From: Solirubrobacterales bacterium
GTDB taxonomy: Bacteria; Actinomycetota; Thermoleophilia; Solirubrobacterales; Solirubrobacteraceae
Direction of reading: 5' to 3'
Assembly: GCA_003244205.1 (NCBI GenBank)
Contig: QHBW01000089.1
Location: 49-64,048, forward strand
Length of the DNA stretch: 64,000 nt
Positions within the stretch are counted from its first letter, which is position 1, and every line of letters begins with the position of its first letter. The notes beneath the pieces were generated by a model, which saw only the letters and a list, made by a program, of their open reading frames with translations, was not told where the DNA came from and made no database searches. This document shows, piece after piece, positions 15,948 through 19,008 of the stretch. The position numbers and the translations under genes were made by a program.

Positions 15948-15959
15948 CGCGCCTGTCAG

Positions 15960-16031
15960 TACCCCCAGGGGGAATCGAACCCCCGCTACGGGCGTGAAAG
16001 GCCCGCGTGCTAACCGCTACACCATGGGGGC
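15960..16031 (-). tRNA. tRNA-Glu (anticodon UUC)
   Basis: The reverse complement folds as a cloverleaf: acceptor GCCCCCA/TGGGGGT, anticodon arm CGGGC-CTTTCAC-GCCCG, and T-arm GGGGG-TTCGATT-CCCCC. CCA is not encoded. Confidence 0.9.
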
Positions 16032-16089
16032 GGGAGGTCCAACGTCCAACGGCAAGGTTTAGTGTACGGCGGCGGCCTTTGGCCGAGAC

Positions 16090-16404
16090 GGGCCGTTAGC
16101 TCAACTGGTAGAGCGGTGGACTTCAAGAAAGGAGCGCCAGTCGGGAAACCGCTGGTCAGTCGGCGGCTGTTTGCTGGGAACCCCTTAGAGCCTCGAGTAC
16201 CGGCCCGTGCCGGTGACAATCTCCGAGGATTGGGCAATCAGCAGGCAACCCAGATACGGGGAGCCCTCAGAGGCCATACGCCGCCCACCCTAACGTCGAG
16301 TCGAGGGTGAAGAGATGGTCCAGACCGCAACGCCTCAGGCGGCCGGTGAGAGCCGGTGCGGCAGGTTAATCCAGCAGATTCGGGTTCGAGCCCCGAGCGG
16401 CCCA
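16090..16404 (+). tRNA. tRNA-Lys (anticodon UUU) interrupted by a group I intron; exons 16090-16123 and 16366-16404
   Basis: The 5' exon GGGCCGTTAGCTCAACTGGTAGAGCGGTGGACTT covers positions 1-34. The 3' exon TTAATCCAGCAGATTCGGGTTCGAGCCCCGAGCGGCCCA covers positions 35-73. Joined, they give anticodon loop CTTTTAA, T-arm TCGGG-TTCGAGC-CCCGA, and acceptor GGGCCGT/GCGGCCC. Confidence 0.85.
16124..16365 (+). ncRNA. group I intron (IC3-like, tRNA-type), 242 nt, no ORF
   Basis: A U precedes the 5' splice site and the terminal base is G. GGAG (16131-16134) can pair with exon CUU|c. GGGAAACC lies at 16143-16150. CACCCTAACGTCGAGTCGAGGGTGAAGAGATGGTCCA (16286-16322) closely matches my memory of the catalytic core of cyanobacterial tRNA-Leu introns. 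Confidence 0.85.
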
Positions 16405-16431
16405 TAGAGCAACCGCCGACCAGGGGCACTT

Positions 16432-19008
16432 GTGAGCACCGACATGGCACTCCCCATATTCCAGCCCATCCCCGGCCGCGGTGTCCGTGCGGGCAGATCG
16501 GTCACGCGCCTGGGCAAGTGTCTAGTTTCGAGCGCATGTGCGGTTTCGGTCCTGCTGGCGCTTTCAGCGCTCGTGCCAACGGCGGCGGCCGCGAGGGTGG
16601 GAGGGGTCTCGATCGTGGTGCTGTCCAACCGCGCGGATCTGATCTCCGGCGGAGACGCGCTCGTGGCGGTAGGGCTGCCTAGCGGCGTTGCGCCGTCGCG
16701 CATTCGGGTCACCCTCCGGAACCGCGACATCAGCGGCGAGTTCGCGTTGCGCCCCAACGGCCTCTACGAGGGGCTCGTAACGGGTTTGAGCAACGGCACG
16801 AACGTCCTGACCGCGGTAGTGCTCGACCCCGTGGACAAGCCTTATCCGGAGCCCGACGGCGACGAGCCTGCGGCGCGGCTCACGATCACGAACCACCCGA
16901 TCGGCGGTCCCGTGTTCTCAGGTCCGCAGGTGCAGCCATGGAAGTGCCAGCCGGGTGCGGTCGACAAGCAGTGCAACCAGCCAACGCAGTACAGCTTCGT
17001 GTACAAGTCGACCAGCCCACTCAAGCCGGGCTTTCAGCCATACAACCCGGCGAGTCCGCCGTCCGATGTCGCGATGACGACCACCGACCAGGGTGTCAGC
17101 GTGCCGTACATCGTGCGGATCGAAACGGGATACGAGGATCGCGACCAGTACAAGATCGCGACGCTGTATCGCCCGGGCGAGCCGTGGGCGCCCTGGGCGC
17201 CACAGAAGCAGTGGAACAACAAGCTGTTGATCACCCACGGCGCGAGCTGCAATGTCGACTACGCGACGGGCTCGGCGCCGAACGTCACCAGCTACAACCC
17301 GGCTGGCCTGCTCGGCCTGCCTGTGTCACTACCAGTGAGCCCGCTGGGAGACAGCGCCGAGTACGCGTTGGCCCACGGTTTCGCGGTCATGTCGACGGCG
17401 CTCGACAACAACGGTCACAACTGCGACGTCGTCACACAGGCCGAGTCGTTGCTGATGGCCAAGGAGCATCTGATCGAGTCCTACGGAACAGTTCGCTACA
17501 CGATCGGAGCCGGATGCTCGGGGGGCTCCCTGGCCCAGCAGTGGATCGCAAATGCCTATCCGGGGATCTACCAGGGGATCCTGCCAACCTGCTCCTTCCC
17601 GGACACATGGTCCAGCGCGACGCAGGTCATGGACTACCACCTGCTGCGCACCTACTTCGAGAACTCCTCCCATTGGGGCCCGGGAGTCGCGTGGCTACCC
17701 ACGCAATGGGCTCCGATCGAGGGCAACCTGCTGCCCGTCGACGCGATCGTGAGCGACATCGGGTTCTTCAACGCGATCGTCCCGACACATGCGTGCGGCG
17801 GTATCAGTGACCAGCAGCGCTACCAGCCGCAGACCAACCCTGCTGGCGTGCGCTGCTCGATCGCCGATCTCGCGATCAACGTCTTTGGTCCGCAGCCCAG
17901 CACGGTCTGGTCGGCCAACGAGACCAAGCTGGGCCACGGCTTCGCGGGCGTCCCGGTCGACAACGTCGGCGTGCAGTACGGGCTCAGCGCGCTCGCCGGC
18001 GGGCAGATCACGCCGGGTCAGTTCGTCGACCTGAACATGCGCATCGGGGGTCTGGACATCGACATCAACCCGACCGCGAAGCGCATCGCCGCCGGCCAGC
18101 CGGCCCTCGCCAACGCGTATCGCAGCGGGATGATCAACGAGACGAACAACCTCGACCAGACCGCGGTCATCGACTGCCGGGGACCCGACCCGGGGGCTGC
18201 GCACGACTCATATCGCGCGTTCGCGATTCGCGCGAGACTCGATCGCGAGCACGGCACGCACGCCAACCAGATGATCTGGGAGGGCCCGGCTCCGATCATC
18301 GGCGACACCAAGTGCACGGTCGAGAGCTTCGCGGCGATGGATCGCTGGCTCGCGGCGATCGAGGGGGATAGCAGCACCCAGCCGCTCGTGCGCAAGATCA
18401 TCAACGACAAGCCCGCCGACGTTCAGGACCAGTGCTGGGACGGCATCGGCACGAAGATCTCCAACGGCCTCTGCCCCCCGGGGATCGTCCCCGTGTACGG
18501 AACCCCTCGCACCGTCGCGGGCGACGCGATCACCACCGACGCCAACAAGTGCCAACTCAAGGCGCTTTCACGCAGCGACTACAAGGTCACCTTCACCGAC
18601 GACCAATGGGCGCAACTGCAAACGACGTTCCCGACCGGCGTGTGCGACTACTCCAAGCCCGGCGTCAGCCAGCAACCAACGATCCCGTGGCTGACCTACC
18701 AGGACGCCCAAGGCAACGTGATCTACGGGGGGCGGCCGCTCGGCACGCCGCCGAGCTCCACCGCGTGTGAAGCCACGCGGTCGCTGATCGTCGCCCTCCC
18801 ACGTTCACCGCGGGGCCAACGTCTGTCCTCCGCCCGCGTTTACCTGAACGGCAAGCAGGTGCGGTTGCTGCGCGGGCGAGCGCTGCGTTCGCCGATCGCG
18901 CTACACCGATTCCCCGCCGGAACGGTTCACGTCAAGATCGTCGCGCGCACCCGCGGCAGGCGGCGGGTCATCAGAAACGTTAGCTTCAGCGTCTGTACCG
19001 CGGCCTAA
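16432..19008 (+). CDS. secreted tannase/feruloyl-esterase-like alpha/beta hydrolase (DUF6351-like) with extra C-terminal module
   Basis: ORF 16432..19008. It has a signal sequence ...VSVLLALSALVPTAAAA, a nucleophile motif TIGAGCSGGSLAQ (GCSxGG type), and many Cys residues. The C-terminal 80 aa form a separate module (see findings). Confidence 0.8.
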   Translation: MSTDMALPIFQPIPGRGVRAGRSVTRLGKCLVSSACAVSVLLALSALVPTAAAARVGGVSIVVLSNRADLISGGDALVAVGLPSGVAPSRIRVTLRNRDISGEFALRPNGLYEGLVTGLSNGTNVLTAVVLDPVDKPYPEPDGDEPAARLTITNHPIGGPVFSGPQVQPWKCQPGAVDKQCNQPTQYSFVYKSTSPLKPGFQPYNPASPPSDVAMTTTDQGVSVPYIVRIETGYEDRDQYKIATLYRPGEPWAPWAPQKQWNNKLLITHGASCNVDYATGSAPNVTSYNPAGLLGLPVSLPVSPLGDSAEYALAHGFAVMSTALDNNGHNCDVVTQAESLLMAKEHLIESYGTVRYTIGAGCSGGSLAQQWIANAYPGIYQGILPTCSFPDTWSSATQVMDYHLLRTYFENSSHWGPGVAWLPTQWAPIEGNLLPVDAIVSDIGFFNAIVPTHACGGISDQQRYQPQTNPAGVRCSIADLAINVFGPQPSTVWSANETKLGHGFAGVPVDNVGVQYGLSALAGGQITPGQFVDLNMRIGGLDIDINPTAKRIAAGQPALANAYRSGMINETNNLDQTAVIDCRGPDPGAAHDSYRAFAIRARLDREHGTHANQMIWEGPAPIIGDTKCTVESFAAMDRWLAAIEGDSSTQPLVRKIINDKPADVQDQCWDGIGTKISNGLCPPGIVPVYGTPRTVAGDAITTDANKCQLKALSRSDYKVTFTDDQWAQLQTTFPTGVCDYSKPGVSQQPTIPWLTYQDAQGNVIYGGRPLGTPPSSTACEATRSLIVALPRSPRGQRLSSARVYLNGKQVRLLRGRALRSPIALHRFPAGTVHVKIVARTRGRRRVIRNVSFSVCTAA

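Follow-up and report, generated by a model that had tools for sequence, protein, structure and literature searches.

A compact group I intron of the Lys.3Ug class in a putatively functional tRNA-Lys(UUU) gene of Thermoleophilia

Introduction

The number of classes of group I introns in bacterial transfer RNA (tRNA) genes has been raised from 4 to 21 (Williams, 2020; bioRxiv 10.1101/2020.01.27.920355), and the accompanying seed alignment holds three classes residing in tRNA-Lys, which are Mle24.Lys.3Ug, Mpe6.Lys.4Ug and Dba165.Lys.2Ug. Other systems comparable to the one described here are the cyanobacterial and plastid tRNA-Leu(UAA) intron (Leu.3Ug; Anabaena/Synechococcus, IC3), the structurally solved tRNA-Ile(CAU) intron of Azoarcus (Ile2.5Ug) and the tRNA-fMet intron of Synechocystis with its endonuclease. 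In this report, we describe a split tRNA-Lys(UUU) gene found in a 64-kilobase (kb) stretch of contig QHBW01000089.1 (hereafter the window), which comes from an uncultured soil actinobacterium of the class Thermoleophilia and has a guanine-plus-cytosine (GC) content of 70.1%. We consider it highly probable that the gene is functional and that the insert separating wobble nucleotide U34 from U35 is a compact group I ribozyme of the Lys.3Ug class, devoid of an open reading frame (ORF).

The first-pass annotation of this DNA had regarded a group I intron in tRNA-Lys as novel. That claim fails because the Lys.3Ug class was already catalogued in the 2020 preprint, whose seed alignment also includes Lys.4Ug and Lys.2Ug. 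A tRNA-Lys intron is not listed in the review by Hausner et al. (2014; PMC3984707), and literature searches combining group I introns with genus names of Thermoleophilia yielded no further relevant papers among those listed. The "introns" of 22-49 nucleotides (nt) reported in cyanobacterial tRNA-Lys(CTT), tRNA-Gly and tRNA-Arg genes (Mohanta et al., 2017; PMC5733544) were rejected as earlier examples of group I introns in tRNA-Lys because their length was judged far too short for a ribozyme.

The split tRNA-Lys(UUU) gene and its product

The gene consists of three segments:

16090..16123, + strand: exon 1 of tRNA-Lys(UUU), positions 1-34 (acceptor 5' strand, D arm, anticodon-stem 5' strand, C32 U33 U34), read from the sequence
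16124..16365, + strand: group I intron of 242 nt without an ORF, Lys.3Ug class, between U34 and U35 (RF00028; homology to Mle24.Lys.3Ug)
16366..16404, + strand: exon 2 of tRNA-Lys(UUU), positions 35-73 (U35 U36 A37 A38, anticodon-stem 3' strand, variable loop, T arm, acceptor 3' strand, A73), read from the sequence

Exon 1 terminates in ...GGACUU and exon 2 opens with UUAAUCC. The end of exon 2 is complementary to the acceptor strand at 16090-16096 and is followed by A73, while CCA is not encoded. The sequence agrees with the first-pass assignment of the two exons to tRNA positions 1-34 and 35-73, and the ligated exons form a 73-mer that is called tRNA-Lys(ttt) by ARAGORN whether genomic flanks are present or absent. 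When the ligated exons were compared with all 5426 E. coli genomes, the top matches were genes annotated as tRNA-Lys. The product is a cloverleaf with anticodon UUU, covarying stems and a Lys-type sequence, from which aminoacylation with lysine is predicted.

Relatives were collected by one pattern scan of species-representative genomes. The pattern combined four elements: the terminal portion of P8, J8/7, a section of the P7 3' strand and the first bases of exon 2. The scan identified 81 loci with the same split gene (individual loci are designated by L numbers). For 80 loci, exon 2 is preceded at a distance of 236-271 nt by an exon 1 that is 33-34 nt long and terminates in GGACTT, and ARAGORN called the ligated products of the window and 80 other copies tRNA-Lys(ttt) without exception (81/81). 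For covariation, 31 representatives that are mutually less than 90% identical were used (alignment A1). Compensatory changes across the intron were observed among them in the acceptor stem (UA/CG at a ratio of 16:15), the anticodon stem and the T stem.

Anatomy of the intron

The insert follows group I rules, as the first-pass annotation had stated: the base before it is U and its last base is G in the window. The RF00028 search that this annotation had suggested gave a significant match for Intron_gpI at 16114-16342, covering the full model (1-253) with 47.5 bits and E=5.4e-11 in a search of 601 nt (15950-16550). A complete P1-P9 fold was drawn on the window, and all core helices from P3 to P9, including the P3/P7 pseudoknot, can be drawn with standard pairs:

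16121..16134, + strand: P1 hairpin, in which C32 U33 U34 and intron C35 (16121-16124) pair with guide GGAG (16131-16134); loop AAGAAA
16136..16156, + strand: P2 hairpin with a GAAA (GNRA) tetraloop at 16145-16148; double-side changes in 5 of 8 pairs among the 31 sequences; RNAalifold and minimum free energy (MFE) folding
16162..16167, + strand: P3 5' strand GGCGGC, pairing with 16280-16285 over 6 base pairs
16172..16243, + strand: P4-P5 domain, with P4 at 16172-16177/16238-16243 and P5 at 16182-16184/16232-16234
16191-16197/16221-16228 (P5a) and 16200-16213 (P5b), + strand: extended arm; double changes in 3 pairs of P5a and 4 of P5b; RNAalifold and MFE folding
16244..16265, + strand: P6 (GGC/GCC) and a variable P6a hairpin, from pair counting and RNAalifold; P6a is the site of an endonuclease ORF in L049
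16270..16276, + strand: P7 5' strand G(A)GGCCA with bulged A16271, pairing with 16316-16321 (UGGUCC); 6 standard pairs invariant in 31/31
16280..16285, + strand: P3 3' strand GCCGCC, from pair counting on the 31 representatives
16288..16307, + strand: P8 hairpin CCCUAACG...CGAGGG, from pair counting and RNAalifold; a motif common to cyanobacterial Leu and fMet intron seeds
16308..16321, + strand: J8/7 (UGAAGAGA) and P7 3' strand (UGGUCC), invariant in the 31 representatives and in agreement with the Rfam consensus UgAAGAUAUAGUC
16325..16361, + strand: P9 three-way junction, with P9 at 16325-16328/16358-16361, P9a at 16331-16341 and P9b at 16343-16356
16365..16365, + strand: terminal (omega) G, which is G in 81/81 homologues

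The first-pass annotation had proposed GGAG at 16131-16134 as the P1 guide with a U.G wobble, and the representatives bear this out. The wobble is formed by U16123.G16132, is flanked by U-A, C-G and C-G pairs and is invariant in 31/31. All four P1 pairs are standard in 31/31, given that the first intron base is C (24 sequences) or U (7 sequences), either of which pairs with G, and the guide GGAGC is present in all 81 homologues. Conservation and geometry, with no covariation, point to this hairpin as the probable 5' splice-site helix. Two further segments singled out previously, GGGAAACC at 16143-16150 and CACCCUAACGUCGAGUCGAGGGUGAAGAGAUGGUCCA at 16286-16322, are present as described.

P7 is pseudoknotted with P3, and its position agrees with that of P7 in the SS_cons of the Williams seed alignment; by analogy, P7 would be the guanosine-binding helix. 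The P4-P5 domain has a conserved internal loop, UA / UGACAAU. P3 displays compensatory changes in two pairs, from GC to AU/UA in 10 sequences and from GC to CG in 2. P9b is capped by a GAGA (GNRA) tetraloop at 16348-16351, and P9a and P9b, with double changes in 3 pairs each, are also drawn by RNAalifold and MFE folding.

Splicing one base upstream on both sides would end exon 1 at U33, place the intron at 16123-16364 and start exon 2 at G16365, giving tRNA-Asn(GUU), and this is what the intron option of ARAGORN reports on the native sequence, as tRNA-Asn(gtt) with i(34,242). In the window, U precedes the 5' site and G is the last intron base in both registers. Across the 81 homologues, however, the last intron base is G in every sequence in the Lys register, while the preceding base varies, so that the Asn register retains G in 70 and has U in 8, A in 2 and C in 1. 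The invariant U.G wobble lies at U34, whereas U33 pairs with A in P1. Lysine is also indicated by the annotated tRNA-Lys genes that best match the exons in E. coli and by A73, which is the discriminator of tRNA-Lys, rather than tRNA-Asn, in that species. The tRNA-Asn(GUU) register was rejected, since it would lose the terminal G in 11 of 81 homologues and leave the 5' U outside the wobble pair, and we regard it as scarcely credible.

Covariation, folding and integrity of the gene

The P1-P9 and cloverleaf structure was hand-drawn on the window and then scored by pair counting. In the 31 representatives, 93.7% of the cells of this hand-built structure are paired, as compared with 36-50% when the partners are slid. 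Twenty-eight pairs have changed on both sides, and none of 500 shuffles (0/500) attained any of the observed measures. The double changes back P2, P3, P5a, P5b, P8, P9, P9a and P9b as well as the acceptor, anticodon and T stems. Without guidance, RNAalifold recovered the cloverleaf across the intron together with P2, P3, P4, P5, P5a, P5b, P6, P6a, P8, P9, P9a and P9b and missed the pseudoknot strand. MFE folding of the single sequence gave P2, P3, P4, P5, P5a, P5b, P8, P9, P9a and P9b.

Several observations weigh against a working ribozyme in a functional gene. The 47.5 bits of the intron fall marginally short of the RF00028 gathering score of 50, and only one of 18 relatives passes it (L083, 54.2 bits); none of the RF00028 seeds is bacterial (Williams, 2020). 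P4, P5, P6 and P7 have no double changes, and P1, P4, P5 and P7 never vary and are therefore uninformative for covariation, though they fit the group I consensus. The MFE z-score is modest (-1.77 for a sequence of 65% GC). A P10 helix adjoining the guide sequence can be formed in only 49 of 81 sequences, which fits the Anabaena pre-tRNA, whose exons are aligned by the anticodon stem (Zaug et al., 1993, as cited in PMC3984707). Finally, the 28 high-GC3 (GC at third codon positions) ORFs of at least 300 codons in the window contain 4 AAA and 184 AAG codons. The demand for the tRNA-Lys(UUU) product is thus low, because AAA codons are very rare here.

The sub-threshold RF00028 score and the rarity of AAA codons would also be expected if the intron had decayed into a relic that no longer splices and the split gene were a pseudogene, with AAA being read by an intact tRNA-Lys(UUU) encoded elsewhere in the genome. 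Both exons, however, are intact in 81 species, their acceptor, anticodon and T stems have undergone compensatory changes, and the columns of the catalytic core are invariant. The helices of the intron also stay paired through double changes, which is not expected of a pseudogene across families. Moreover, an intact tRNA-Lys was not found in 60 loci of up to 8 kb each or in the 64-kb window. A relic is accordingly judged most unlikely.

A separate observation concerns the guide GGAGC (16131-16135), which is complementary to GGUCC of the P7 3' strand (16317-16321), both being invariant in the 31 sequences. RNAalifold paired the two, which we treated as an artefact of two invariant segments and of a program in which pseudoknots cannot be drawn. 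The helix could be a competing pre-catalytic alternative or a coincidence.

Comparison with described tRNA introns

The intron has the attributes of Lys.3Ug: it resides in a tRNA-Lys, its insertion point is the third position of the anticodon loop (CUU/UUAA), and positions -1 and omega are occupied by U and G, respectively. Its identity to Mle24.Lys.3Ug is 79% for the 5' half, 77% for the 3' half and about 61% overall in the multiple alignment. The two introns share the tRNA, the site between nucleotides 34 and 35, the GAAA loop of P2, the extended P5 arm ...GAGCC..GUAC....GUGACAAUC..GGAUUGGG, AAUCAGCAGG in P4/P6, UCAGAG in J6/7 and the P9 three-way junction ending in ...GCAGCAGG. They differ in P7, which is GGCCA/UGGUC in the window and GACUA/UAGUC in Mle24.Lys.3Ug, and in the P1 loop, which is shorter in the window.

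Identities to the seeds of nine other classes range from 50 to 59% in the 5' half and from 54 to 77% in the 3' half. From J6/7 to omega G, the Leu.3Ug, Arg.5Ug and Lys.4Ug seeds reach 68-77% identity with the window intron, the upper values being 76-77%. The 3' module P7-P3'-P8-P7'-P9 is thus common among bacterial tRNA introns, while the half from P1 to P6, which includes the long P5 arm, is specific to Lys.3Ug. This mosaic similarity hints at modular evolution or at differing rates in the two ribozyme domains.

Likeness to the core of the cyanobacterial tRNA-Leu(UAA) intron had been pointed out in the first-pass annotation, and it holds for the 3' half (68-76% identity), whereas the 5' half is only 50-57% identical. 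The insertion site proposed there to be shared by both introns, after nucleotide 34, is indeed that of Leu.3Ug. The two introns also have in common the U.G wobble, the omega G, a GNRA loop on P2, the P8 motif CCCUAACG...CGAGGG, J8/7 and P7 (...GAAG.GA..GUCCA) and the P9/P9a/P9b region with a GNRA loop; in the seeds Sel1.Leu.3Ug and Tpc1.fMet.2Ug, P8 reads ACCCUAACG...AGGGU. Both are kept across a large bacterial lineage, albeit in different tRNAs. Introns of IC3, the subgroup to which the four classical classes of bacterial tRNA introns belong, are recognized by a short P5, the P4-P6/J6/7 consensus AAUCCCGAGCCAAG / GUAGAGACUA, and GNRA loops in L2 and L9 with receptors in P8 and P5. In the window intron, the 3' half, the GNRA loops of L2 and L9b and the P8 motif are IC3-like, whereas P4-P6 and J6/7 differ (AAUCAGCAGGCAAC and UCAGAGGCCA as opposed to the classical AAUCCCGAGCCAAG and GUAGAGACUA), and a long P5a/P5b arm that classical introns do not have is present.

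The Azoarcus Ile2.5Ug intron resembles the window intron in being an ORF-less group I intron of about 200-250 nt in an anticodon loop. Its P1 is likewise short, with three exon pairs of which the last is U.G, and its P2 is capped by a GAAA tetraloop. It is inserted two positions further 3', is 57% and 54% identical in the two halves and differs in P8, where it has the canonical CCUAAG...UAUGG receptor in place of CCCUAACG...CGAGGG, and in its simpler P9 region.

Distribution and inheritance

Most of the 81 loci (76) are labelled Thermoleophilia or more broadly actinobacterial, mainly Solirubrobacteraceae, Thermoleophilaceae and Solirubrobacterales; 4 belong to Chloroflexota, and 1 is probably a mis-binned contig. 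The last (L057, CAMCUD010000009.1) is labelled as a metagenome-assembled genome (MAG) of Bifidobacterium breve. With a GC content of 70.8% and exons that match the Svornostia abyssi exons (L040) at every position, it almost certainly derives from Thermoleophilia and was wrongly binned with Bifidobacterium. The only named cultured carriers among the 81 loci are Svornostia abyssi J379 and Patulibacter brassicae SD.

Within Thermoleophilia, the nearest neighbor of each intron shares its family label in 56/56 cases, and intron and exon distances are correlated (Mantel r=0.45, 0/2000 permutations). A tRNA gene adjacent to the split gene is also conserved:

15959..16031, - strand: tRNA-Glu(UUC), a neighbor outside the intron (ARAGORN and Rfam), conserved beside the split tRNA-Lys

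tRNA-Glu(ttc) occurs within the 8-kb locus in 51 of the 55 Thermoleophilia-type loci scanned. A tRNA-Val(UAC) gene is often near the split tRNA-Lys as well, and the orientation of the neighbors varies (loci L004-L072). The agreement of family labels, the correlated distances and the tRNA-Glu/tRNA-Val neighbors together suggest that the intron has been inherited with its tRNA, mostly vertically.

The Chloroflexota introns are about 63% identical to the window intron, and their loci are devoid of the tRNA-Glu/tRNA-Val neighborhood. One of these relatives (L049:241-1010; Anaerolineae MAG JBAQCH010000379.1) has a split tRNA-Lys(UUU) gene with an intron of about 698 nt, in which the loop of P6a contains a 169-codon ORF (ATG 442, stop 951) whose reading frame continues into the ribozyme core. 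The ORF matches PF11645 (PDDEXK_5) of Pfam with E=6e-20, and its best PDB match, 2OST, is weak (E=0.41). L049 is therefore likely to be a member bearing a homing endonuclease of the PD-(D/E)XK type, and because it carries this ORF, the intron family includes a potentially mobile member. The structure 2OST is that of the Synechocystis tRNA-fMet intron endonuclease, which we take to be the homing endonuclease I-Ssp6803I, although the PDB entry says "putative endonuclease". It belongs to the same Pfam family as the L049 ORF, and both reside in anticodon-loop group I introns; the Synechocystis system differs in its tRNA and insertion site, and the window intron itself is ORF-less.

These findings bear on the possibility that the intron is a mobile element, which was spread horizontally and repeatedly into tRNA-Lys(UUU) by endonuclease homing and later lost its endonuclease gene. 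Such a history would explain why the same intron is at the same site in two phyla, Actinomycetota and Chloroflexota, and why L049 possesses a PD-(D/E)XK ORF of the family that includes 2OST. That only two named cultured species are among the matches could mean a patchy distribution, but patchiness may also stem from the strict search pattern. No ORF, however, is present in any of the 77 Thermoleophilia-type copies (236-271 nt), whose introns group by host family label and co-vary with their exons in distance, and the tRNA-Glu(UUC)/tRNA-Val(UAC) neighborhood is conserved. In addition, a scan of 2.9 million viral contigs with the family pattern returned 0 copies. Repeated horizontal spread thus appears unlikely, though the Chloroflexota relative with its predicted endonuclease suggests that this family is capable of mobility or was so in the past. 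As judged from these sequence comparisons, the intron is very probably a working, vertically inherited intron in a functional tRNA-Lys(UUU) gene.

A phage search matched positions 82-162 of the intron query (16171-16251 of the window, the P4-P6 part) with about 78% identity, 23-25% query coverage and E values of 3e-7 to 1e-5. The matches are in Acinetobacter phages YMC13/03/R2096, Herod and P577 and Pseudomonas phages vB_PsyM_KIL1-5, in regions that are unannotated or annotated as "portal/hypothetical protein", and probably represent group I introns that interrupt phage genes.

Gene context and annotation

The split gene is flanked by purH and a DUF6351 gene. Two MAGs, GCA_051003075.1 and GCA_036768375.1, have contigs that are identical to the window over 5.9 kb or more. 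A promoter scan upstream of the split gene did not find a sigma-70-like site, and the one terminator-like match (16149-16166) falls across the 3' strand of P2 and the 5' strand of P3 and was taken as chance.

The default mode of ARAGORN called no tRNA at the split gene on the native window, where its three calls were Glu at 15959-16031 (-), Tyr and Thr, and it missed the split tRNA-Lys in 60/60 loci scanned. An Rfam scan of the window at gathering thresholds likewise returned only three ordinary tRNAs and no group I match; the intron and its tRNA are missed in such standard scans because the RF00028 score lies just under the gathering score. The first-pass annotation was therefore right that gene callers would miss the gene, while the opal-suppressor or Sec-like call it had anticipated was not seen. 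Of the spurious ORFs it had predicted here, 16062..16310 exists mechanically, but the recorded calls on the two identical MAG contigs include no gene over the intron. Spurious ARAGORN calls (Asn gtt, Arg gcg, Ser cga) do occur over P9 and exon 2 in some relatives (L017:7004-7081, L018:1727-1806, L033:3184-3264 and L009:203-282), and such false tRNAs may be present in the public annotations of those genomes. tRNAscan-SE, according to its authors, is not designed for group I intron detection (PMC8450103). Given that default ARAGORN and Rfam at gathering thresholds miss the gene, Thermoleophilia genomes and MAGs will seem to be without tRNA-Lys(UUU) or to bear spurious Asn, Arg or Ser tRNAs, by which tRNA counts for MAG quality and inferences on AAA decoding are distorted.

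Proposed splicing mechanism

We propose that the split gene is transcribed into a 315-nt precursor, in which the halves of the anticodon stem would pair and keep the exons together. The end of exon 1 (C32-U33-U34) would form P1 with guide GGAG, the U34.G wobble marking the 5' splice site, and the P3-P9 core would fold with its P3/P7 pseudoknot, the GNRA tetraloops on P2 and P9b and the extended P5a/P5b arm. A free guanosine bound in P7 would then attack after U34. The terminal G16365 would next take the place of this guanosine in P7, and the second attack, after G16365, would come from the 3'-OH of U34. This would join the exons into the anticodon loop CUUUUAA and release the intron. Catalysis, the guanosine-binding role of P7 and protein-free self-sufficiency are suggested here by analogy with established group I chemistry.

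Significance

The finding opens no new category. It is chiefly of use for annotation and as a definition of a second tRNA intron that is lineage-wide: Thermoleophilia are a second large group of bacteria in which an anticodon-loop group I intron is retained along with its tRNA. Two cultured organisms, Svornostia abyssi J379 and Patulibacter brassicae SD, offer material for testing this. Tentatively, and as a distinct possibility, we suggest a joint history in which the intron is an ancient, vertically inherited fixture of Thermoleophilia in the sole tRNA-Lys(UUU) gene, its lineage having crossed between Actinomycetota and Chloroflexota by PD-(D/E)XK homing. If so, every AAA codon in these bacteria would depend on ribozyme splicing, and the intron would be an actinobacterial counterpart of the cyanobacterial tRNA-Leu intron.

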